A stretch of DNA of 62,973 nucleotides, the filler included, from Aduncisulcus paluster (Eukaryota): assembly GCA_024181965.1 (NCBI GenBank). It is 11 parts of 11 records of this genome, joined end to end, with 100 filler letters (N's around TTAATTAATTAA, not from the genome) between each part and the next. Parts side by side here need not be neighbours in the genome. Positions count along the whole stretch, not along the records: positions 49,521 to 62,973 come from BQXS01000130.1; 10 more parts are not named here. One strand, given 5' to 3'. The stretch's first letter is position 1. Every line of letters starts with the position of its first letter. Below are positions 1 through 60,054 of the stretch, piece after piece. The notes beneath the pieces were generated by a model, which was given only the letters and a program-made list of their open reading frames with translations, was not told the DNA's origin and ran no database searches. The position numbers were made by a program, and so were the translations under genes.

Positions 1-2995
1 TGCTCATGTTTCTTGTTGAGGTCTTTGGACTCTTCTTCAGAACATCCATCAAGACCGTAGGTCACATCGATGGGGTCGAACAACCAACTCTTGGCCTCAA
101 TGGCTTGTTCTATTGTGGCAATAACAGGAAGATCTTCATACTCGACCTTGACTTCCTTCAGAGCCTCAATACCAGCATCCTTGTTGTCAACACAGATAAT
201 AGCAAGGATCTGACCGACAGTCTGACACTCATCGCCAACACCTATGAAAACAGGCTCATCCTGAATAGCCACACCGACAGCATTGACTCCTTGGATGTCT
301 TCTCTTGTCACGACATCAACAACACCAGGCACTTCAAGAGCTTTGGAGACATCCAAAGAGACGATACGGGCATGGGGGTGATTCGTGAACACGGGAATAG
401 CAATCACGGTGTCCGAGGGTTGAGACATCGTTGAAACATACTCTGCTTTACCCTGGACTTGACGTTCAGCGGATACATGGGGCTTGTTGCCATGGGTAGT
501 GGTCGTGTTAACAGATTTTTTGGAAGGATCCGTCTTTGGCTTCCCTTTATCTTCAGAGTAATCGTAACGAACGGTACTCTTTGAAATAGAATGAAGTCTT
601 CGATCAGTCATACTCTCTGAAAGGAAAGAGGCCAGGAAGGATTCAATGTCATCATCTTCCTCTTTGACAGCACCCTCACAAGTGGGAGACTCCTTTCCAC
701 ACATTTCAGCCCATCGTTTCTTTTTCCCAGCGATACGAAGGCCCTGACAGATCTCCTGAGCTTCAGCTTCACCGACGCCCTCTGCAATGGCCTTGAGAAC
801 ACCTCGAATGAACTCTCCACCACACATAATCTCCCGGTAACGAGGCATTCCTCCGGGAACACAGTCAGGGAGGACGAGGGCAGAGGAAAGCATGGAGAGG
901 GCTTTTGTCAAGGTGGCGGCAGTCAAGATAGTGGACATGAGATACTCCTCGAGGGCAATCTGAGGCTTTGTGTGGGCAGCCATACCACCAAATACAATAC
1001 CAGCATGTTTAGCTCGAATGTGCCCAGACTCATCCTTGTAGCAATTTAAAGAAACACACCCGTTCACAATACTTATATCATCCTCCAGTCGTCTTGCATA
1101 CTTAAACTCATGCACAACAGTGCCCTTGGGTGCAAAGGGTAAGGAAATACCGGCCACAAAATCATTATCGGTCAGAATCGTTCGGCGATAACCGGTGATA
1201 AACTCACGAAGAGGGACATCCTTCACAGTCCAGCCCAAGATTGAGTCTTTCGTGTAAATGTTCATAATAGCATGATTAGCCATCAAAATGGGAATTGTGT
1301 CGCTGATTGGACTTGCGTTACTCACATTACCAGTAAGGGTGGCGACTTCACGGACCTGGGAAGAGGCAAAGAGACGGAGTTGACGGCGAAGAGCCAAAAG
1401 AGGAGCTAAAGTCGAGGGTTCAGATTCCACAGATAAATTACGAGATTTATATTCGTAGAGGACTTTGCTTAACGTTGATAGTGTACGTTCTTCTTCTTCT
1501 GATGGAGGGGGTTCCACAGATCGGGAGGGTGAATCAGAAACTTCGGGGTCAACAATACTATCAACAACTTCACAAACTTCGCTAAGGGTGATAGAACCGC
1601 CAACGAAAAGAGATGGCATGGTTTTACCGTGAACTTCAACATCTCTGAGCTCCATTTGTCTCATTTCAGAGAGAGATCCGACAGGAATGCAGATCTCGGG
1701 GAAAGTACCGCGATTTTTTTTGTCGACAAGGACTTCACTCATTCCAGAGACGATGCGGCAGTGTTCGTGGGTATCAAGGAATTGTAATAACGAAGGAAGT
1801 GTTCCAGGACGGAAGAGGAGTCTGTTGGATGTCTTGGGAAGAGAAGAGAAAAGAGGGNNNNNNNNNNNNNNNNNNNNTTCACAAACTTCGCTAAGGGTGA
1901 TAGAACCGCCAACGAAAAGAGATGGCATGGTTTTACCGTGAACTTCAACATCTCTGAGCTCCATTTGTCTCATTTCAGAGAGAGATCCGACAGGAATGCA
2001 GATCTCGGGGAAAGTACCGCGATTTTTTTTGTCGACAAGGACTTCACTCATTCCAGAGACGATGCGGCAGTGTTCGTGGGTATCAAGGAATTGTAATAAC
2101 GAAGGAAGTGTTCCAGGACGGAAGAGGAGTCTGTTGGATGTCTTGGGAAGAGAAGAGAAAAGAGGGTTCTCAAAGAGTTTGTCGGCATAGTGATAATCCA
2201 TTAACGCTTTTGGGAATGGCTGGGGAAGGCTGAATTTCTGCCCAGGGGTGCGTTTAGTCATGGAAGGTTTAATAACAGTTCCTTCAGAAGCGGATTCTTG
2301 GTCCTTGTCGTAATCTACACTGGTTAAGGGGCGAACGGAATGAGCAACAAAATCCTCCAATTCAGTGTGAGTGGTCTTTTTGAGATCGTCAAGATATCCT
2401 TCATAATCGCTTCCAAATGTCTTTGCAGCATCAAGAATAGCACGGTATCCAGTACACCTACATAAATTGCAGTCAAAACAATGCTCAATTTCCTTCACTT
2501 TGGCGTTGGGGTGATTGAGAAGGAATGCGAAAAGTGCCATAACGATACCTGGAGTACAAATACCGCATTGAGTGGCATGATAAGCAACAATACGTTGCTG
2601 AATAGGATGTAATTGGCGTGGATTTGTGGACATGCCCTCAATTGTGGTGATAGCCATACCATCGCAGTAAATTAAGGGTAAGATACAAGAAACAACAGCA
2701 CGATGAACTATTCTTCCCTTAAACTTATCAAAATGCGAAAGTAAAATGGTACATGAACCACAGCCTCCTTCTCCACATGATACTTTGGTTCCTTTCAATC
2801 CAATGCCTATTGAGGTATATTTTGAGGAAAATAAAGATGGAAAATAGCATAAGAAAAAATGAAAGACAATAATAACAAGAAAATATAAAATATATATCAC
2901 ATACTTTTCAGGTAAGAAGCTAGGGACATTGTTGGATGAACAGATGTTATAAAATGTCTTTTTCCATTGATATAAAGTAATACACCTTCAACCAT
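1..2995 (-). CDS. XDH: Xanthine dehydrogenase/aldehyde oxidase family molybdo-flavoenzyme (eukaryotic single-chain type), 3'-truncated at the window edge
   Basis: Manual translation; absent from the ORF track because it is spliced and runs off the edge. Exon 1 (2995-2905) reads MVEGVLLYINGKRHF...SLASYLK. Exon 2 from 2806 carries 2Fe-2S motifs GLKGTKVSCGEGGCGSCT, HATQCGICTPGIVMA and CNLCRCTGYRAIL, FAD-domain motifs LFASSQVREVATLTGNVSNASPISD and ARRLEDDISIV, and the start of the Mo domain (HVSAERQVQGKAEY, HPHARIVSLD). An in-frame artefactual duplication surrounds the N gap at 1858-1877. Confidence 0.93.
1569..2166. repeat. Assembly-artefact overlap duplication around a 20-N gap (representative of nine)
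   Basis: 1569-1857 is repeated at 1878-2166. The same pattern occurs at gaps 14339-14358, 23167-23186, 27083-27102, 28570-28589, 34390-34409, 40063-40082, 52360-52379 and 57716-57735. Confidence 0.9.
2807..2904 (-). other. Spliceosomal intron (98 nt) in XDH
   Basis: 5' GTATGT, 3' CCTCAATAG. Removal restores the frame (A|GC = Ser) and eliminates an in-frame TGA. Confidence 0.9.
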
Positions 2996-32659: not shown

Positions 32660-32759
32660 NNNNNNNNNNNNNNNNNNNNNNNNNNNNNNNNNNNNNNNNN
32701 NNNTTAATTAATTAANNNNNNNNNNNNNNNNNNNNNNNNNNNNNNNNNNNNNNNNNNNN

Positions 32760-35434
32760 CTTGCAGATGATACAACAGCACTTCTTGCAGATGATACAAC
32801 AGCACTTCTTGCAGAGGGTGGGTATGCGTTTGACGATGATTATCTCCCAATGTCTGAGCTTGTGGAGGACGAGGCTCTAGTTTCACCGCTCATCCTTTTA
32901 GAAAGGATGCTCCAAGGCCTCTCTAATCTTTCGAGGGAAATTGTCATTGATGCTCTGCTAAAGAGGATCACTCATAAAACATATCAAAGATACAGAATGG
33001 CACAGATTCGTGATGTATCCCAACCAGACCTACCATCACTAAAGATAATACGACAGTTGAGATCCAAAGTGGTCAGAACTCACCGTCTGTGCCAGTATCA
33101 ATGCCCTAGAAGTCGATTCGATCGTGATGAGTCGTCAATCACACGTAGTGAATCATTTCGTTGGATGTCTCCACTATCATCAATTCCACAATATCTTATG
33201 AAATTGGATACATTTGAACATTTCTCTCCTCATTTAAGTGTTCCAACCATCAGTGATGGACCCATAGTGGGCTCTAAATATTCTCATGCTCTGCACGCAA
33301 TATGCCCAGGACATACTGCTCAAGATGAGAGATGGCGAAGGTTCCTGATCAATCACGACGAGGGAGTCACATGGGAACTGTATCACGATTTCTGTATGAT
33401 ACACCATATCCCCCCCATCTTCTTCATTGGGCTTATGGTATTCATGGATGGTATTGCTATCGACAGAAGGAGGCACAGTGCATTGTGTGTTAGATACACA
33501 TGTTGTAATCTAAAAGAAGAATATCGAAACAAGAATCATGCCTGGCACGAATTATGTGTTGTTGAGGAGTGCGGCACAGAACCATCAATGGCTATCCTAA
33601 AAGAATTGGTAAATGATGCCCTAGCATTGCAAAAGGGAATAAGGATATTGATCGACGGGAAGGAGATAATCATCAAGGGGTATCTCCATCACATTGTCTG
33701 TGACGGAAAACAAAAATGGATAAACATGGGAACCCCTAGAGGAGGACATCATCCTTGTACTTGGTGTCATATTGACGGAGAGGCCATGATTTTTGCCGAC
33801 AAGGTTGGAATGAAGAGAAGGTTCTCTCCCTTATCGGAAGATGAACCCATTGACACGATAAGTTATTACGATGAAACTAACCCCCTCATACATTCATGGG
33901 TAAGAGACAGATTGATATTTAGCCCACCCGATCTACATTGTGGCGACTTACTCCATGATCAAGAGTTAGGCATGACCTTAGATACCATAAAATTGTTCGA
34001 ATGTATGCTAACCGACCCCCAACAAAAAATGTTTAATGATCGACTCGAGGCATTTGGTTGCAGAGTTAGGTTGGGAGGAGGTGGGCGGGAGGGAAGTGAC
34101 TGCGCAGAATTCCGGGCGTTTTGCTTCCCATGCATCTGGGAACTTGATCGTATCTCTGTCCGGGGCAACGCTACATTCTCATTCTTATATGATGGTGACA
34201 GATATGCGGATGAAGAACTTTCAACAGTTGGCCGCACATCGATTTTGCGTGTGAATCCAAAGAAACGGAGTGTCCGCAGGAGGGGTGTCACAACTGAAAC
34301 ACATGGTCACCTCCGTTTCAAAGATGTATTATTCATGACAGTTTCGTTGGATGATTATGTTCTTAAAATGGCCATGGCGAAACCTGGAGNNNNNNNNNNN
34401 NNNNNNNNNGATACCATAAAATTGTTCGAATGTATGCTAACCGACCCCCAACAAAAAATGTTTAATGATCGACTCGAGGCATTTGGTTGCAGAGTTAGGT
34501 TGGGAGGAGGTGGGCGGGAGGGAAGTGACTGCGCAGAATTCCGGGCGTTTTGCTTCCCATGCATCTGGGAACTTGATCGTATCTCTGTCCGGGGCAACGC
34601 TACATTCTCATTCTTATATGATGGTGACAGATATGCGGATGAAGAACTTTCAACAGTTGGCCGCACATCGATTTTGCGTGTGAATCCAAAGAAACGGAGT
34701 GTCCGCAGGAGGGGTGTCACAACTGAAACACATGGTCACCTCCGTTTCAAAGATGTATTATTCATGACAGTTTCGTTGGATGATTATGTTCTTAAAATGG
34801 CCATGGCGAAACCTGGAGAGGATGTGAACGAAATTATAGAGTTAGCAAGGATTCATAGGGCGATATGGATTCCTTTATGTGTTCTGGCAAGGGTTATATC
34901 CACCAACAGAGGAATCTCAAAGGTAAAACCACATTACATAACACATATCGAAGAGTGGATAGAGAAATGTGGAAGTCTTCGACACTATTCAGCCCAGGTA
35001 GGGAGCGACTGAATAAGAGTGTAGCTAAATTATATGAAAAGCTACGATCGGCAGCACACAAACACCAGCTAGCCGCAGAAGTTTTGCCTTTTCTGCATAT
35101 AAGCGAAAGCGACGCTCGTGTTCCAGACATATGCTTCAAAGAAGATGACTATTATTTCTTTGACAGTGCCAATGGAGTCATAAAATATCAATCATGTGTT
35201 GATGGCATTGCGAAAGGAACTATCTATACATACTTTGGAGAACAAGTTGAGTTGGCTTGCAGGGGATACGGAGCAAATATAATTGGGTTATATATTTATA
35301 GTCTTACAGCTGACAGTGGATATGTGGCTCTTGCAAGAATAAGTGAGAAAACAAAAGCGGCAACAGCTGGCCAACTTAAGTATGAGGGGATAGATTCAAC
35401 AAAACTTATCGTCCCTGTTAGATCAAGAAAATGA
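32760..35434 (+). mobile_element. CACTA/EnSpm (Plavaka/Mirage-like) DNA transposase, 5'-partial, with a 1-nt frameshift near 35002
   Basis: LMVFMDG (first D), CCNL..EYR, LQKGI, HIVCD (second D), HPCTWC, DLLHDQELG, KPHYITH....IEKCG.L, then SAQVG/ERLNK (E) across a GGG frameshift. A 24-bp in-frame repeat (LADDTTAL x2) lies at 32760-32815. Confidence 0.8.
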
Positions 35435-46947: not shown

Positions 46948-47367
46948 ATCTGGAATTCGTAGACAGCGTCCAGACCCGTGGTAGCACCAAAGTACGCAGA
47001 AACTGTTGTCAAAAAGGAAATTTCTCGTTCTTTGACTTGTTCTTCTGTACAACCTGAAGGGTCCTCGAGAACAGCATCCGTCACGTCCAGGTAGATAATT
47101 AACACCTCAGGTGGGATTAATCCGAACAAGGTTGCCTTCCCGCCCAGCGCTCGATATTGGCGAAACTTTTTCAAAAAACTTCGGAAAATAGATTTTTCCC
47201 AAACCCAAATAAAATAGGAGCAGCCTTAATCGGCTGTAACTGTGGATTACTCATAGAAAAATAATTATTTTGTACTATGATTGGTACAATTTATTAAATA
47301 AAAATAGAACGAACAGTTGGATCTAAAAATAGATATGTGAGAAACATTAAAATAATTATCCGTAACA
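46948..47367 (-). mobile_element. Nested LTR element B: LTR 47367-47271 (97 bp), palindrome 47271-47258, gag from ATG 47254 (1-nt frameshift in A run near 47195), truncated
   Basis: TGTTAC...GTACA. Repaired gag MSNPQLQPIKAAPILFGFGKKSIFRSFLKKFRQYRALGGK aligns with element A gag (QPFLDTVTTKSWTDFVSEYQHYRSLGGK). The LTR shares TCTATTTTTAGA and TTTAATAAATT with LTR A. Confidence 0.75.
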
Positions 47368-48600
47368 CTTGTCGGCTTGAGTCATTGGTTGGCCCCATGA
47401 TATGAGGCCCGCTGCTTCAATGCATCTGGCTGATAGGATTAACCTCTCCGATGGGTTCGTGAGTTTGGTGATGATACATGTCTCTTCAAATACCACCGAG
47501 GCTCCGTCAAACCCGGGCACCTTGATGAGAAGATGAATACTATTCGTGGAAGTCATTTCACCACCCTCGATTCCTGAGAGGATCACAGGATGTGTCTCCT
47601 TTATCTCTTCCTTCCAGTTGTTCGCGAGCGATTCGTCGATGACCGATACATCTGCCCCCGTATCTAAAAGGGCGTGTGTCGTTTGTATGTTGGTCCCTTC
47701 ATCAGTGCTAAGCCATACCTCTCTTCGAGCTTTGCTGGTATTAATCACATTCATCCGGTACTTAGGGGAGGCTTTACTGGGAACCTCTTGGCAAGCGCTG
47801 GCATAGTGACCAACCTTGTGGCACTTATTACAGATGACTCCTGGGAAGAATCTCTTGTAGCGAGGGTCTCTGTGTTTGATGAATGCTCGGGGTGGGCGTT
47901 CCCCCTTACTGTGTCTCTTACTGCTTGTTACCCTCTCTGCCGATGTCTGTCGAGGAAAACGTCGCTTGCCCACTCTTGACGGGCAGTCCCGAGCTTTGTG
48001 TCCTTTTCCTCCACACTCGAAGCAAATGATGGTCGTTGGTGCGTCTGCTGGAGTAGGAGTACCACGAGTAATTCTGACTTCGGCCTCATTTGCAAGCATC
48101 AGGCGAACCTGGCAAGCAGCCACTGTCACCAGTTCGGGTACTCGGTATTCCTCTGAGGGAATAGATGCTGTCACTCTTTCCACCAAGCGAGTGGGGCGAA
48201 GGCCCTTAATAAAGAGCTCTGCTACCATTTTCGGGTCTGGTTTCACTAGCGCACGGCCGAGAGTGTCCACAAAGTCCTGGGCGAACTGGATGAAGTTGTC
48301 CACGGTCAGCGGTAGCTTTACAGTGAGAAGTCGTAACTTATCGTACAACTCGATGTTAGTTGTCGTGGAAAAAAGCTTTTCGGTCTCCAAGAAAGCGTTG
48401 TCGCGCTGCGTCTGCAAATCGAACGTCGTGACCCCAGAAATAGTCGAAATGAATCGTAAGGCAGAAACCGAACACATAGCCGGCCATTCCACCTTCCCTC
48501 CAAGGGAGCGGTAGTGCTGATACTCGGAAACAAAGTCAGTCCAGCTTTTTGTTGTGACAGTGTCCAAAAACGGTTGAATAATCTTGTCCTTTTTGTCCAT
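47356..48600 (-). CDS. Ty3/gypsy-like Gag-protease of element A, interrupted by element B
   Basis: Two CCHC knuckles (CFECGGKGHKARDC, CNKCHKVGHYASAC) and aspartic protease ALLDTGADVSVI. The last codons (CYG*) come from LTR B. Confidence 0.88.
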   Translation of the reverse strand: MDKKDKIIQPFLDTVTTKSWTDFVSEYQHYRSLGGKVEWPAMCSVSALRFISTISGVTTFDLQTQRDNAFLETEKLFSTTTNIELYDKLRLLTVKLPLTVDNFIQFAQDFVDTLGRALVKPDPKMVAELFIKGLRPTRLVERVTASIPSEEYRVPELVTVAACQVRLMLANEAEVRITRGTPTPADAPTTIICFECGGKGHKARDCPSRVGKRRFPRQTSAERVTSSKRHSKGERPPRAFIKHRDPRYKRFFPGVICNKCHKVGHYASACQEVPSKASPKYRMNVINTSKARREVWLSTDEGTNIQTTHALLDTGADVSVIDESLANNWKEEIKETHPVILSGIEGGEMTSTNSIHLLIKVPGFDGASVVFEETCIITKLTNPSERLILSARCIEAAGLISWGQPMTQADKCYG

Positions 48601-48610
48601 ACGAGATATT

Positions 48611-48836: not shown

Positions 48837-48860
48837 GTACCTTACAGTACGTTAATAAAA

Positions 48861-48933
48861 TACATCTCCTGGGACTTGAACCCAGGACTAGCAGTACAGC
48901 AGACAGCTGCCATACCAACTGAACCATATATGA
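48861..48933 (-). pseudogene. Degenerate tRNA or tRNA-derived Pol III unit (nominal anticodon GCT)
   Basis: A box TGGTTCAGTTGG, perfect T arm CTGGG-TTCAAGT-CCCAG, tRNA-like spacing and TTTT downstream. Acceptor, D and anticodon stems have mismatches and there is no long Ser-type variable arm. Confidence 0.6.
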
Positions 48934-49520
48934 CATTTTAATATTTTCATGATTGGATATCTAAAGGTGATCACCACACCCGGCCTTCTTTAATAAGAAA
49001 GCAATAACTAAACAGGTGAGCACTTAATTAAACAAAACAAATTAGTAACCATCATATCCGATAATAAAACGTCATAATACTCCTTAACCTAGAGATCTAA
49101 CACCAATACTATCACATCTCAATAACAAGCACTTTTCACAACTTCAATTAACAAAATACAATTCCAATTAAAATATATGTTCTCAACATAAATTTAACCT
49201 TATATAATTGACTGGGGCATGATTTAGATTTCAGATCGAAAACACAACGACCAAAAATAAATAGCTACAGTTGTATTTCAGGTCATCGATGTTTTACAAC
49301 TGTATACATTTGTATTACAACTTAAAATGCCTCTCAGCATACCTACATAAACATTCAAACACATTTATTTTCTTAGTGGAACTACTAGTTAGAGGAATAA
49401 TTAGTCAAATTACTTCCATTNNNNNNNNNNNNNNNNNNNNNNNNNNNNNNNNNNNNNNNNNNNNTTAATTAATTAANNNNNNNNNNNNNNNNNNNNNNNN
49501 NNNNNNNNNNNNNNNNNNNN

Positions 49521-50484
49521 CAATAGATCCGTCTTCTCCGTGCCTTCGACTGGAGAGAGAGTGAGAAGGAGTCTTTTGTATCCATAAATCCCGATTCCAA
49601 TCCTTCAAAAGATCACATTTGTTTAGAAATACAACGACACTAACCTTCTTTACATGCATTTCTTTCTTTGTAAATGAAACGATTGGCCATACGTAACCTC
49701 TCTTGGGATGAAATATTAGGGTAGAAATATGATCAGGCGTAATAATAGATTTTGGGGGGATTTTGAGAATCCTCGCGGCAATATCATGTCTATACACTCT
49801 ATCTTCAGACAATCTGGCACCCAGGGCATCGACTCCGACCATACAGACAAAACAAGATTTGTATTTCTTGGAGGATTGTGATTGATACTGGTATGAGAAG
49901 GAATGAGGAAATTTCGTAGGAATAACGGGATCTCTATATGATAATGCAGCTTTTAAAGGCTTTCCACGGGCGCCATCAGCTTCAACAATGACTACGTCGA
50001 CCAAATTACTATCCAAAAGATCGCATGCCAATTGCGGACTTGTACCCTGTTCTTTACCATCATATAGACCCGAAGAAATGAAACCAACGATGCCCAATGG
50101 TATTTCCAATAATTCTTCTGACGTGGAATGTCTTGAATAAAGAGTCGACCCAGGGAGATCTGATTTTGATTTTTGTTTGTGAAGCTTGGAATATCCTTGT
50201 TGAGAACGCTGTTTCTGCATGAGTAAACGCTTTGATGCAATCATATTTAAATTCTCTTTAAAAGTAAGAGTGGAATCATAAATGACAGAATCTCTAACAA
50301 CAAAATCAACACAACGGTGAGTTGTGGGTGATACTTGACGCATTTTAGTAGTTGTTGTAATTGCTACAACCCTTCCAAGAGCCTTAAACTTCTCAGCAAG
50401 TGCGAAAACTAAGGAGGTTTTCCCACCTCCACCAACTATCGAAATGATATCATAACCAGCAAAAAGATCGAGAGTATCAGGCAT
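49521..50484 (-). CDS. yqeC: YqeC-like selenium-dependent molybdenum hydroxylase accessory protein, 3'-truncated
   Basis: Ordered YqeC motifs ISIVGGGGKTSLVFALA, VAITTTTKM, DVVIVEADGARGKPLKA, DPVIP, VGVDALG, RVYRH, LIFHPKRG, VVFLNKCD. Likely start is ATG 50484. Confidence 0.85.
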
Positions 50485-50718
50485 TAAAAATATGATTGAT
50501 GAAATAAACTTTATGAGGGTATTTTGAAGCCAGAGAAAAATGATCTGGAAACCCATGATTCTAGCCGCCGTAATTCATCGTATTATCAATATTATTCTGA
50601 TCTCACAAAATGAGATACTGAAAAATTAACGATTTTTACTTCCTACTTTTTCAACATTGAACTCTTTTTTTTTTTCATGTCAGTAATACGATATTGATTT
50701 CAAAGATTTTCTCTTTAA

Positions 50719-53243
50719 TTATTCTGACCAAATATAAGAACCTGGCTTTGTCCGAGGAAGTCCCAACCCTCCATCGCGTTCAGCTTCTCCCAAGAATGCA
50801 CTTGACACTCCACCGAGCACTCTTTCTCTTTCTCTTTCCCTTTCTCCAAATCCTGAAAGAGCTGAAGCGGCAGCAGCGAGATTCCCACCAACATTTCCAA
50901 TTCCACCCATCAAAGCATGCAACCCGCCACTTCTTTCCTCCTTCTTCTGCCCAAAGATCTGATCAACACTCTCTCTCACTCTCCTAACCATTTCTTCAGT
51001 CTCCTCTTCTCCTTCTCCTCCAATTTGCCGCATCACGGCATCGATACGACGCACAAGATCGTGACGGTCGGTCTCACCAGCAAATAAATCATACATATGG
51101 GGAACAATAACATCCAAAAGCAATTCGACAACAACTTTTTGCCTCTTAACTCGCTTCAAGCACATGGAAGCACGTTCTTCAGCAGCTTTTACACGCTCTT
51201 CAAGCAACGAGATGATATCTGTTTCTTCACCGTCCATCACAGGGCTTGAGAATGGAGAGGATGATGTTGTGGCTCTAATTCCATGTTTCTTGCCACTAGT
51301 TTTTGATTTGGAAGCTTTAGTCAACATAACCTTACTTTTCTCTAGGCGTTCAAACTCCTCGCGTAAATAAGATCTTAAGGGAGTGAAAATATCGAGGAAT
51401 GAAGGGACGATTCTATACACATTCGTCTCTTTCTTTTTACCAGTTAACTTATTCCTCACAGTTACACCTTCTTCCGTGCGAGTGAAACGTTTTTTCCAAT
51501 GAATCTTGCTCATTTCACTTACATATGAGTGCATTGGAGACAGTGAGAGTGTCTTAGAACATACATAGAGATAACGATTGGAGAAAATCTTGTTTTTGCT
51601 AAAGAACATCACAACCACGTGACAAGGACCAACAATAACATTGTCTTCGTTGTATTTGGACTCTTGGAATTGCTCAAAACTCCCTTTTCCATGGTCACCA
51701 TACCTCCCAGCGGTATCCTCATCCTCCTCAACGACTGTCCCGTCACATTGAATGCTTATTCCAGAAGGGTGCATGTGAGTACTCTCAGAAATATTGCCTT
51801 CAGAATAATCTCTCTCGTATTCATCTTGTTTCATCACCATTAAGGAGACTTTGTTGCCCCCACGTTTTGAACGACGACTAGGTTTTCCAAACACAAGAAC
51901 TTCATCTTTTCCAATGTACATCCCTCGAATACTCTCGATGTGAGCAATTACTGTGTGATCGAAGGGATGAGGAAGGAGATCGCCGACGAGTTCTTTGAGT
52001 TTTGGATCCTTGAGACGATTATCGAGCAATAACTGAGTGTTTGTGAAGACATGAGGGAAGAAATTGGCGATTCCTGGTGTTGCTTGTGATGAAATTGAAA
52101 GGCTAGCCGAAGGTGGAGTATATTCATGAGAGGTTGAAGATGAATCGGTGCCAAGGTTCGAAGGAGATGTAGAGGGATTTGTGGAATGGAGTAAAGATTC
52201 AACCATATCCTCTTCATTCTCTTCTTCTTCTTCTTCTTCAGACTCGTCACTTTCCTCTTCCTCTTCCTCTTCCTCTTCCTCCTCTTCGCTTTCTTCAACA
52301 CCCATCCCGAGGAGACTGTCTCGAAGGCCTGCAACAGCACTGCGATCTTCACCATGCTCNNNNNNNNNNNNNNNNNNNNGTTCGAAGGAGATGTAGAGGG
52401 ATTTGTGGAATGGAGTAAAGATTCAACCATATCCTCTTCATTCTCTTCTTCTTCTTCTTCTTCAGACTCGTCACTTTCCTCTTCCTCTTCCTCTTCCTCT
52501 TCCTCCTCTTCGCTTTCTTCAACACCCATCCCGAGGAGACTGTCTCGAAGGCCTGCAACAGCACTGCGATCTTCACCATGCTCATAAGTCAGAATGGGCT
52601 CAGCAAATTCCATGAGTTCAGCATCAAGCTCGGTGGCATCGGGGTCTTTGCCTTGAAGGAAAGCATTCCGTCTGGTGGCACATTCAGAAAGAGCAGTAGA
52701 ATAAACTGCTTCAGCTCTTGCAATGGCATCATTTCTTTCGCGAGTTAGCTCTTCAATATCACGGTCAATGCGACGAAGAGCAGCACATCGTTTGACGACG
52801 GCTTCAGTGGGTTTTTCTCCAAGACCTTTACGCAAAGCGGTTGTTAATTTTTGTTTTAAATGATCAACGACTTCACCAACAAGAAGGGCAGCCTGGTGGT
52901 GCGGAGCAGGAGCATTTGGAAGGTTAGGAACAGAAGAAGGGGGAGCCATGATCCCAGAAGGAAGAAGGTTAAATTCATCTCCTAAATGTACGATAGGTTT
53001 AGAAGAAATATGTGAACTTCCGCTTCTGGAAGAGGGTGAAAAAGCTCCAGGTGAAGCGACACCAAAAGGAAGCTCAGCAATGGTCTCAACGAGATGTTGT
53101 TGCGGGGAATGGGGTTCTTCAACGGGAATATATTCGGAAAGCAGTGGTGGATTCTCAGTTTCCCGTTCTCCTTCACTCTGGATATCAGAACACTCTTCAT
53201 AATCGAGAGAATCAATATCTTTGAATAAGTTTGTTTGATTCAT
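50719..53243 (-). CDS. Divergent nucleosome assembly protein (NAP1/SET family); one gene split by a gap artefact
   Basis: Dimerisation helix ...YSTALSECATRRNAFLQG, GIANFFPHVFTN, FFSKNKIFSNRYL, IHWKK, SFLDIFTP, IVPHMYDLFAGE. Confidence 0.7.
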
Positions 53244-58123: not shown

Positions 58124-58338
58124 CAAAAAAATATTATCTGATTCTTTGGTTTGTTCCTAAAAAAAATTTTTTTAAAAAAAAGTTGTTCTATTTTTACATG
58201 GTGCGTGTATTGATTGATCTGTGATATATATACATATAAAGATTATTTTTGTTTGTGCTATATTTCATATTGGCATATCTGAATAATGAATAAACAGACC
58301 TGTCACGCAACCCCGTTTTGCTCACATTAAACAATTCC

Positions 58339-60054
58339 ATGCTCACAAAAACTTCGGAAAGGCAAAGAAGAGTATTCACTTACCTTCAAGGTATTCGCGG
58401 TATAACTTCAATTGTCATTGCCATCACCCATATGCATACAGCATCCGTTCTCATTCCAACGGGGGAATATAACCTGCCCGCCCGCTATACTCAAGGGTTA
58501 ACTGCTCAGCCTTTTCCTTTATCAATGGTAAAAGGTGATCTTCGTGTCTTTATGGTTATCTTCCACGTTCTGGTTGGTTTTTTCTGCTGTCGGGAAATTC
58601 TTTCAACTACCCCTTCATTCAAAGCCTATTTGAAGTATGTTGTGAAGCGTTATCTTCGTTTATGGCTCCCTACCCTTCCTATCCTTGCCCAATGGGCCTG
58701 GAGCAAGTCTCAACAACTCCCCCTGAATGCTCCCATTTTCCCGTTGTCCCCCTGGTGGAATTTAACTTTACTCCCCGCTTTCATCTCATTCTACATCATT
58801 CCCCCTGGTTTTATGTGGAGCATTGCCGCTGACACGATCTGTGCCATTTTCCTGCCCCCAATCCTGTGGATGTGTCAAAAGGTCACCAAAAAGGTCGGTG
58901 GAATGTTTTCCGTGCGTGGAATTGTTTTTTGTTCCCTCTTATTCCTTGTAATCACAACTCCTTTCGTCATTTTGAACATTGTATGGAAAACACCCAAAAT
59001 GTTCGATCCAAACACTGACAAAGTCATCATGTTAACTTGTTCGGCTGCCTATAGTTTCGCTCCAATCAAATTCCTTGGTTATTTCCTCGGTGTTATCATT
59101 TGGTCTATCTTCTCTGCATATTTGGAGAAGAATGATCCTCTCCAGGCAGTTGTGAAGGACGAAAAGATCCCCGAAAGTGTTGTTGAGACTGATGAAGCCG
59201 ATGAAGCCATTGAAGAAATTCCTGCTGATATTTCTGAAGAAAAAGAACAAGAACTTGAAGAACAAGAAGAACCTCTAACAGTTGATGAAACAGTTGATGA
59301 AACAGTTGATGAACATGATGATGTTGTTGAACAAGTTAAGGAGGTCACACCAGAGAGAGAAGGAGAGGAAGGAGAGAAGAAAGAGGAAGATGTTACTGGG
59401 AATGAGGAAACTCCCAATGTTAAACCTCATCTTGACATCTCCCTGAATCCCCTAACCACCATTCCTTCCTTGAAATCCCTCTCTGCTAGGAAAAATGAGA
59501 TCTCCTTGGATTGTTCATCTCCCAAATCTTCTGCTTTCCCTATTCTTAACTCTTTCGTGTCTATTCTGTACGATATTGTCACCTTCTCTGTTGTTATCTT
59601 TGGTTTAATCGTGCGTGAGTTCCTTTCTTCACAAAACGATATCACGATGACTCATGAAAGACGTTTATTCGATATATTTGCTGGTCGCATTATTTCTGGA
59701 CTTATCTTGACTATTGGTATTATTATTATGCCTCTGTTCAAACCATACTCCATGTCCAATCCTATTCTATCCATTGGAGGTTCTTATATCTTCAAGAAGC
59801 TCGGTGATATCTCATATTCAACTTACCTTATTCAAGTTACGGTATACGAGTTTGTGTGGATACGTAGTGGACTTGTTGCTCGTGTTTTCGATGGTTCTTT
59901 GGCACCTTGGCTTGATGCTGCCCACCCTATTGGGTTTAACTTTCTCAGATGTGCTCTATTTTTATCCGTAGTTACCGCATCTGCTCTCTACCATGTCTCT
60001 TATGAGAAACATGTCGGGAAAATTGGGAAAAAGATTGTATCTCTCTTCCATTAA
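58339..60054 (+). CDS. Acyltransferase-3 (OafA/NRF-6-type) multi-pass membrane protein
   Basis: YLQGIRGI...ITH, FHVLVGF, KRYLRLW, WSIAAD, LGDISYSTYLIQ, YHVSYEK; acidic loop of about 100 aa. Confidence 0.85.
   Translation: MLTKTSERQRRVFTYLQGIRGITSIVIAITHMHTASVLIPTGEYNLPARYTQGLTAQPFPLSMVKGDLRVFMVIFHVLVGFFCCREILSTTPSFKAYLKYVVKRYLRLWLPTLPILAQWAWSKSQQLPLNAPIFPLSPWWNLTLLPAFISFYIIPPGFMWSIAADTICAIFLPPILWMCQKVTKKVGGMFSVRGIVFCSLLFLVITTPFVILNIVWKTPKMFDPNTDKVIMLTCSAAYSFAPIKFLGYFLGVIIWSIFSAYLEKNDPLQAVVKDEKIPESVVETDEADEAIEEIPADISEEKEQELEEQEEPLTVDETVDETVDEHDDVVEQVKEVTPEREGEEGEKKEEDVTGNEETPNVKPHLDISLNPLTTIPSLKSLSARKNEISLDCSSPKSSAFPILNSFVSILYDIVTFSVVIFGLIVREFLSSQNDITMTHERRLFDIFAGRIISGLILTIGIIIMPLFKPYSMSNPILSIGGSYIFKKLGDISYSTYLIQVTVYEFVWIRSGLVARVFDGSLAPWLDAAHPIGFNFLRCALFLSVVTASALYHVSYEKHVGKIGKKIVSLFH

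Follow-up and report, generated by a model that had tools for sequence, protein, structure and literature searches.

The window (the whole stretch of DNA that was analyzed, 62,973 nucleotides of the Aduncisulcus paluster assembly) is a pseudo-scaffold in which contigs are joined by N44-TTAATTAATTAA-N44 linkers. In its last contig (C130), a minus-strand open reading frame (ORF) starts with an ATG at 50484 and runs through 321 stop-free codons up to the contig edge at 49521. In profile searches, this ORF scores 104.7 bits against TIGR03172 (cut-off 73.05, E = 5.6e-30) and 86.7 bits against PF19842 (cut-off 27.6), and it is a real yqeC gene, referred to below as yqeC1. The preliminary description of this DNA had recognized YqeC here, and that identification stands on the TIGR03172 score. 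The contig edge interrupts yqeC1, and its 3' end and stop codon lie on contig C9937 (416-nt overlap, 100% identity), so that the completed protein has about 411 residues. With separate contigs strung together in this way, the true neighborhood of yqeC1 is on its right-hand side only. The features are as follows.

3..2987, minus strand: 5' half of XDH1, a eukaryote-type xanthine dehydrogenase and likely client, on a separate contig of the pseudo-scaffold
49421..49520, no strand: scaffold linker N44-TTAATTAATTAA-N44, with a different contig to its left
49521..50484, minus strand: yqeC paralogue 1, codons 1 to 321, open at the contig end and completed on C9937 (TIGR03172 and PF19842)
49565..50123, minus strand: stretch duplicated on contig C550 (559 nt, 100%), with unrelated sequence beyond 50123
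49612..49623, minus strand: NKCD, residues 288 to 291, G4-like (N in 131, K in 114, and D in 100 of 148 homologs)
49927..49953, minus strand: K178...D185-P186 motif (KAPxxxEP in the family consensus; D instead of E in both host paralogues)
49972..49983, minus strand: EADG, residues 168 to 171, putative Walker B or G3-like motif, as assigned from the predicted fold
50092..50223, minus strand: lineage-specific polar insertion, about residues 88 to 131, fast-evolving and predicted to be disordered
50347..50358, minus strand: TTTT motif, residues 43 to 46, from the homolog alignment
50416..50433, minus strand: P-loop (G1) GGGGKT, residues 18 to 23 (G18, G20, G21, and K22 invariant in 148/148 homologs)
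50485..50718, no strand: AT-rich intergenic spacer of 234 bp, gap-free and bridged by a single DNA contig of run X1 (50378-52207)
50719..53240, minus strand: eukaryotic-looking, weakly NAP1-like neighbor gene that encodes an acidic tract; the N gap at 52360-52379 has the same 54 codons on both sides

The preliminary description had reported a full ordered set of YqeC motifs, and the alignment bears this out: G18-x-G-G-K-T, T43TTT, K144/G147, E168ADG, K178, P186, R232, and N288 all occupy columns conserved in 85 to 100% of 260 homologs, and the invariant residues G18, G20, G21, K22, T46, E168, D170, and G171 are present. We take the NKCD at positions 288 to 291 to be a G4-like guanine-specificity motif of the kind described in the GTPase literature, and an NKxD motif in YqeC would presumably point to GTP. 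The Glu of KAPxxxEP is absent from both host paralogues: position 185 is E in 148 of 148 homologs and D in the two host proteins, a conservative change with a one-residue insertion adjacent to it. The low-complexity insertion, previously put at about 45 residues, is real as well, as the interval from T46 to K144 counts 98 residues in yqeC1 against 49 in the bacterial homolog P0004, that is, 49 extra. In the comparison of the two paralogues (Nei-Gojobori), dN/dS is 0.28 over the 44 codons of the insertion against 0.066 in the core, and residues 104 to 128 have a pLDDT under 50 in the paralogue model.

The copy of part of yqeC1 on C550 is either 5' truncated or a disrupted allele; DNA depth over 49521-50123 is 2193, compared with about 1200, and the loose end at 50123 matches C550. 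On that contig (locus L003), the 3' part of yqeC1 is joined to unrelated sequence with a higher GC content. A 1,545-nt contig from run X2, whose type was guessed as RNA, spans 49521-50403 and is not counted here as proof of transcription.

Several other elements of the window deserve mention. Its 20-base N gaps mostly have duplicated sequence on both sides, an assembly artifact that splits many genes. The yqeC1 contig also carries a membrane acyltransferase of the Acyl_transf_3 (OafA-like) family (58294-60054, plus strand). A Gag-protease-like ORF (47356-48609, minus strand) combines two zinc knuckles with an aspartyl protease domain, as in a retroelement, and has codon usage unlike that of the host. 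Long transposase-like ORFs at 32712-35434 (plus strand) and a tRNA-like sequence at 48860-48940 (minus strand) were recognized by eye.

Host ownership of the yqeC genes

Some of the 23,235 contigs of the assembly (29.6 Mb) are bacterial, which made contamination a possibility to be checked for yqeC. The gap-free link of about 235 bp to the neighboring gene is as previously reported, with a spacer of 234 bp and no N in 49521-52359. The first 107 nt of yqeC1 are joined to the neighbor by a single contig of DNA run X1 (50378-52207), whose depth of 1311 is like that of other host pieces (1173 and 1205); X1 may be the source of the assembly, and the bridge is therefore not independent. The neighbor looks eukaryotic, and its membership in the NAP1 family is plausible but not established: its two collinear matches to the Pfam NAP domain (E = 0.034 at profile positions 1-57 and E = 0.0093 at 130-219) come from two different pieces of the gene and, with scores of 15.7 and 13.8 bits, both fall below the PF00956 cut-off of 28.6, and a search of PDB returned no match. 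A genome-wide NAP1 search gave no matches, but its controls gave none either.

A full-length paralogue, yqeC2, is found on contig C13855 with 78% DNA identity to yqeC1. It is flanked by a copine gene on one side and by further eukaryotic genes, including a protein kinase, on the other, scores 104.0 bits against TIGR03172, and is already labeled “YqeC like” in a protein collection. Over the 258 codons of the core, Nei-Gojobori counting yields a dN/dS of 0.066 (0.07 after rounding) at a dS of 1.14, so that purifying selection acts on the two copies. A three-way codon-usage classifier, based on 11 host ORFs and two bacterial sets of 6 ORFs each chosen by context, assigned 15 of 15 genes from host contexts, both yqeC copies included, to the host, with log-ratios from +24 to +115. 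With the host codon usage, the second paralogue among eukaryotic genes, and the bridging DNA contig, the earlier argument from host-like composition against contamination holds, and yqeC is a gene of the fornicate host, A. paluster, itself.

Predicted fold of YqeC, the maturation genes, and candidate clients

Folding of a single sequence (P0002) gave an unusable model (pLDDT of 35), whereas a YqeC paralogue modeled with a 150-row alignment reached a pLDDT of 74.5. The best structural matches of this model are FtsY (Z = 10.6, rmsd of 3.4, 177 aligned residues), FlhF (10.5), TRC40 (10.1), and UreG (9.3), and the YqeC sequence profile independently matches FtsY (E = 1.7e-6). YqeC thus models as a SIMIBI-class P-loop GTPase with a predicted FtsY/UreG-like fold. 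Members of this class, both FtsY/FlhF/Ffh and the metallochaperones UreG and MeaB/MMAA, align with the model at Z scores of 8 to 10.6 over about 140 to 190 residues and have the P-loop, DxxG-like, and NKxD motifs in common with it, the P-loop, EADG, and NKxD being conserved across the YqeC family and in both host paralogues. However, identities are only 12 to 17%, and several families, ATPases among them, tie within one Z unit, so the fold indicates class and not function. Foldseek returned no match for the model at E values up to 0.001, a phmmer search of PDB with P0001 gave 0 matches, and a literature search combining “YqeC” with “GTPase” found nothing relevant (one unrelated match). By analogy with UreG, we propose that YqeC may be a nucleotide-gated chaperone for cofactor hand-over; the predicted GTPase fold would offer this family, which has no assigned function, a concrete and testable role.

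A search for yqeB, selD, and xdhC, which the preliminary description had recommended, located each of them on eukaryotic contigs. The yqeB gene is split over contigs C11752 and C12473 (237-nt overlap) and adjoins a TXNDC17-like thioredoxin gene; the full-length EukProt entry scores 249.5 bits (cut-off 220). SelD is of the Cys form (326.1 bits, cut-off 125) and is fused C-terminally to a NifS-like domain, the gene spanning C11157 and C10949 (415-nt overlap) and lying between a eukaryote-style ABC transporter gene and one of the actin family. The 13.9-kb host contig C10935 carries an XdhC-family gene along with a kinase-like ORF and genes of host repeat families. The host also encodes SsnA (455.8 bits against NF005540, cut-off 444; 437.6 against the 455.5 of TIGR03314, with the sequence cut by an N gap), and SsnA-like amidohydrolase sequences occur on two contigs with different flanks (C12610 and C190; loci L168 and L169). 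In bacteria, SsnA is a marker of selenium-hydroxylase loci and acts in ring opening in the 2,8-dioxopurine pathway (available text of bioRxiv 10.1101/2025.04.24.650524). The only match to MocA (TIGR03310) is on a bacterial operon contig, C261, which also carries xdhC; none was seen on host contigs of this possibly incomplete assembly.

The marker triad of SelD, YqeB, and YqeC is therefore complete in A. paluster, each member scoring above its curated cut-off, and only the co-occurrence of the three is held to mark the Se-cofactor trait (accessible parts of PMC9312934 and PMC5029168). Since host contigs encode SepSecS and tRNA-Sec, SelD has a use in selenocysteine synthesis as well and needs no further explanation; an orphan SelD, which is diagnostic of the trait only in some of its members, is thus not what this genome has. 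SelU had 0 matches in the genome.

Two host molybdenum hydroxylases, XDH1 and XDH2, belong to the eukaryote-type xanthine oxidase family, and for both the closest solved structure is mammalian xanthine oxidoreductase (XOR). The XDH gene at 3-2987 was considered as a linked neighbor of yqeC and rejected, as it is on a different contig and, the window being concatenated, not physically linked to yqeC1. The 3' half of XDH1 is probably on contig C11122, with no overlap seen between the halves. As read from the alignment, XDH1 keeps the equivalents of E802, R880, F914, F1009, and E1261 and has an A1078S change, so that a client with intact catalytic residues is available, split over two contigs. 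XDH2 (L022:289-3648 and L154:499-2076, contig C11479) has E802Q, R880K, and T1010E, and its gene sits behind one read as a dynein heavy chain. Judged against what we take to be the usual motif, XDH2 is also without the cysteines of one 2Fe-2S cluster. It might use another substrate, have a changed electron path, or be inactive. Against TIGR03311, the model of selenium-dependent XDH, the two host proteins score 176 and 237 compared with 830, both as partial sequences, and they fall outside the known selenium-dependent clades (TIGR03311 and TIGR03313), their best matches being xanthine_xdhB and mammalian XOR. There is no known sequence signature that distinguishes selenium from sulfur in these enzymes (available text of bioRxiv 10.1101/2025.04.24.650524).

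A host Moco sulfurase with a MOSC domain (the MOCOS/ABA3 architecture) was not found in the genome: MOSC_N had 0 matches, and the single MOSC match is on a 331-bp bacterial-looking contig. Three MOCOS-like ORFs (L037, L038, and L039; contigs C9707, C12356, and C11288) have only the aminotransferase class V domain behind an N-terminal hydrophobic segment, the Aminotran_5-only domain scan covering two of the three. The annotations of Giardia and Spironucleus include counterparts of these PLP enzymes, although this group has reportedly given up the use of molybdenum (accessible part of PMC6147048).

The search for mocA and Moco-synthesis genes, which the preliminary description had also recommended, produced matches on short bacterial-looking contigs only. 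Five Moco-synthesis families (PF06463, 1 match; PF01967, 1; PF02391, 1; PF03453, 3; PF00994, 8) pointed to 13 contigs of 334 to 1501 bp, several with bacterial neighbors such as QueC and HisJ; by codon usage, 12 of the 13 are bacterial and 1 is unassigned. No host Moco-synthesis gene was recognized on these 13 contigs of a fragmented assembly, and the same search did recover divergent host genes (YqeB, XdhC, and a ThiF-family gene). This is a strong hint, though not proof, that the host may be devoid of Moco synthesis.

Distribution and origin of YqeC and YqeB

Among the 120 of 159 YqeC homologs that were listed, the 117 other than the host sequences are mostly 24 to 35% identical to the host copies, and those that carry organism names come from bacteria. 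Neither these 120 nor the best 150 of 1,576 matches in another search, most of them unnamed, yielded an identifiable second eukaryotic YqeC; 10 proteins (8 YqeC and 2 YqeB) were looked up individually. Two 323-residue environmental YqeCs with low-complexity insertions, P0066 and P0364, branch near the A. paluster pair (FastTree, support of 86, 7 rows) and possibly come from other eukaryotes. An exact-peptide scan found no relative of P0364 among the contigs of this genome, which does not make P0364 eukaryotic.

YqeB is also found in the fornicate Kipferlia bialata (282 bits), and its cluster includes Ergobibamus cyprinoides. Ahead of the GD-x-DPR motif, 3 of 225 scorable YqeB sequences have one extra residue, and all three are from fornicates; 227 sequences were examined, and 10 that the pattern had mis-anchored showed normal spacing on inspection. 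The trees are in moderate agreement only. In a 120-row tree, Aduncisulcus and Kipferlia are sisters (SH-aLRT of 85). With 30 rows, one run placed the three fornicates on one side of a branch (91/90), and another run on the same 30 rows did not recover the placement of Kipferlia. P0386, the top nonfornicate YqeB, was considered as a third eukaryote and rejected, as it is an internally duplicated YqeB of a gut bacterium. Because YqeB is common to other fornicates, the transfer is older than A. paluster, and the simplest reading of these sequences is a single old lateral transfer into Fornicata. No donor lineage can be named, the YqeC and YqeB trees having long branches and mostly unnamed neighbors.

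The lateral acquisition of a selenium-cofactor pathway proposed in the preliminary description is thus supported as far as YqeC is host-encoded with homologs that are bacterial where named and the marker set is host-encoded; a transfer specific to A. paluster is not. None of the outcomes that would have told against the proposal occurred: the profile match is there, and yqeB, selD, and xdhC are host-encoded.

Its remark that no characterized eukaryotic example was known to it agrees with the literature searches for YqeC, whereas a eukaryotic YqeB had been noted in 2014. No report of a eukaryotic YqeC, or of the whole set, was found in the open-license literature, which included the available portions of PMC6006210, PMC6759080, and bioRxiv 10.1101/2023.05.03.539051; the supplements of PMC6759080 and of both bioRxiv articles may list such metamonad genes. 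For Spironucleus salmonicida, Xu et al. (2014) described a fusion of NifS with SelD, along with copies of a marker of the Se-cofactor trait “not previously detected in any eukaryotic genome,” and speculated on selenocysteine-independent use of selenium; a supplement of theirs names YqeB (accessible part of PMC3916229). NifS-SelD fusions are known from protists (available text of PMC4561486). Spironucleus, also a fornicate, hence resembles A. paluster in having YqeB and the SelD-NifS fusion. No YqeC, XdhC, or XDH is named among the listed entries of its gene table (PMC6397501) or in the accessible supplements of PMC3916229, whereas in A. paluster the set is complete and accompanied by a candidate client enzyme.

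A proposed selenium pathway and its alternatives

The A. paluster genes fit the published genomic definition of the Se-cofactor trait, as judged by sequence profiles, with a client that is outside the known selenium-dependent clades. Like the prokaryotic systems of Clostridium, Enterococcus, and Escherichia coli, this organism passes the cut-offs for SelD, YqeB (TIGR03309), and YqeC (TIGR03172), and it also has XdhC, a NifS-like protein, a molybdenum hydroxylase, SsnA, and an anaerobic life. In contrast to those systems, its genes are nuclear and unlinked and contain insertions, YqeC is duplicated, no host MocA or Moco synthesis was detected, and the client is a single-chain eukaryote-type XDH rather than one of the TIGR03311 type. 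As the host encodes all the markers together with a chaperone and an enzyme that could plausibly be the client, the genomic case is firmer than the preliminary description could make it.

The best explanation is that yqeC1 is one of two nuclear paralogues in a bacterial maturation kit (YqeB, YqeC, and XdhC) that is scattered among eukaryotic genes. Acquired early in Fornicata, this kit would selenate Moco for a host XDH, possibly with Moco from prey, a reading to which we assign a probability of roughly 0.6. In this pathway, the NifS-SelD fusion, whose domains are evident, would free selenium from selenocysteine and make selenophosphate, as its homologs do. XdhC would hold Mo-molybdopterin, as Rhodobacter XdhC does during sulfuration, and YqeB, judging from bacterial genetics, would bring selenium to the terminal ligand position, which in other eukaryotes receives sulfur from a Moco sulfurase. 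YqeC, on the strength of its modeled fold and motifs and the analogy with UreG, may act as a nucleotide-gated chaperone for the hand-over from YqeB or for cofactor insertion. The client would be the host XDH1, perhaps with the divergent XDH2, working together with SsnA in anaerobic purine breakdown. Since no host Moco-synthesis gene was detected, the pterin cofactor may be derived from bacterial prey, which is the weakest step. The more specific version, in which a free-living anaerobic eukaryote unable to make Moco obtains it from bacterial prey, loads it with selenium through a laterally acquired kit (YqeB, YqeC, XdhC, and NifS-SelD, with YqeC as a UreG-like GTPase), and so turns a eukaryote-type XDH into a seleno-molybdoenzyme for the anaerobic conversion of purines to ATP, is tentative, and we hold it at well below even odds.

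Bacterial genetics bears on this proposal in both directions: selD and yqeB mutants lose purine use (available texts of PMC11448449 and bioRxiv 10.1101/2025.04.24.650524), but deletion of yqeC in Clostridioides difficile gave no clear phenotype (accessible part of PMC11448449), which counts against it. So do the sufficiency of selenocysteine as an explanation for SelD, the low TIGR03311 scores of the host XDHs and their closeness to mammalian XOR, the E185D change in both paralogues, the missing cysteines of one XDH2 cluster, and the searches that found neither a YgfK orthologue nor a second eukaryotic YqeC; sulfur, moreover, could come from the three MOCOS-like aminotransferase V proteins and from the NifS domains. 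The delivery genes may have been repurposed, with YqeB (with or without YqeC) serving a selenium acceptor other than molybdenum and XDH being sulfurated by XdhC and a NifS-type enzyme, an alternative that is unlikely but has to be taken seriously. In Rhodobacter capsulatus, XdhC and NifS4 suffice for sulfuration (available text of PMC10609526), and that system resembles A. paluster in its XdhC chaperone, NifS-type enzyme, Mo-molybdopterin XDH, and lack of a fused Moco sulfurase; selenium-independent roles are possible for both YqeB and YqeC (accessible part of PMC5029168). Spironucleus, moreover, keeps YqeB and NifS-SelD with no XDH, XdhC, or YqeC named among the listed gene-table entries, so that a fornicate YqeB may work without a molybdenum hydroxylase, and this pattern, together with the C. 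difficile deletion, keeps repurposing alive; that gene table, however, is not complete, and the search of it went by names alone. Unlike the sulfur-inserting R. capsulatus system, A. paluster has YqeB, YqeC, and a NifS-fused SelD, which point to selenium, and the joint presence of YqeB, two constrained YqeCs, XdhC, XDH, and SsnA reproduces a set that clusters in bacterial selenium-hydroxylase loci (available text of PMC2276186).

Quite improbable, in our view, is a selenium-independent salvage in which YqeC and XdhC capture, protect, or trim Moco from digested bacteria and YqeC is kept for that purpose. It would agree with the absence of a host Moco-synthesis gene from the 13 contigs matched by the five families, with the frequent fusion of bacterial YqeC to a MocA-type nucleotidyltransferase (PF12804), with the place of C. 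difficile yqeC among Moco genes (accessible part of PMC11448449), and with the predicted GTPase-chaperone fold; yet it leaves the retention of YqeB unexplained, a family restricted to selD-positive genomes (available text of PMC2276186), and the assembly in which synthesis genes were not found is a fragmented one. Long branches, insertions, the missing ligands of one XDH2 cluster, and the truncated second copy of part of yqeC1 would fit genes that persist without function while the kit and XDH are on their way to loss, but such decay is strongly disfavored by a dN/dS of 0.066 at a dS of 1.1 with frames and motifs intact in both paralogues, as well as by the intact catalytic residues of XDH1, and we regard it as very improbable. 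Contamination by, or a chimeric join with, a co-cultured bacterium is scarcely credible: bacterial contigs are present in the assembly (including the C261 operon with mocA and xdhC) and yqeC1 is at a contig end, but its 78% identical paralogue is on a separate eukaryotic contig, codon usage is that of the host, a DNA contig bridges the gene and its neighbor at host depth (in a run that is maybe the source of the assembly), full-length homologs are only about 24 to 35% identical to the host copies among the matches listed, and YqeB has a private indel in common with Kipferlia and Ergobibamus.

If the more specific version above is true, its XDH would be the first enzyme with labile selenium in any eukaryote, and nature would have made a selenium form of the human-type XOR scaffold. 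The sequences suggest that a selenium chemistry so far described only in prokaryotes may work in a eukaryote, here an oxygen-avoiding unicellular one that feeds on bacteria, and a complete marker set there would extend labile-selenium insertion to the third domain of life. This has been called the least understood route of selenium use (accessible part of PMC11448449), and the reviews consulted describe it as prokaryotic. The kit genes are scattered, with no operon, and their joint retention points to a minimal machinery of SelD-NifS, YqeB, YqeC, and XdhC. The client would be very similar to mammalian XOR and would permit a direct comparison of sulfur and selenium on one scaffold, and the apparent absence of Moco synthesis suggests that the cofactor may be scavenged from prey.

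The anaerobic urate (2,8-dioxopurine) pathway of gut bacteria likewise combines selenium-dependent molybdenum hydroxylases with SsnA, and the A1078S change of XDH1 is one noted for DOPDH of that pathway (available text of bioRxiv 10.1101/2025.04.24.650524); on the other hand, XDH1 keeps F1009, and no orthologue of YgfK or of the bacterial XdhAC was found in A. paluster. Uricase had 0 matches in the genome. The YgfK-like match proved to be a PreT-PreA-type dihydropyrimidine dehydrogenase and so not YgfK; this 872-residue fusion (L175:1405-4020, contig C10819) has host codon usage and could stand in for YgfK. As a separate observation made by eye, contig C10118 (L172) carries neighboring divergent genes for imidazolonepropionase-like and urocanase-like proteins of histidine utilization.
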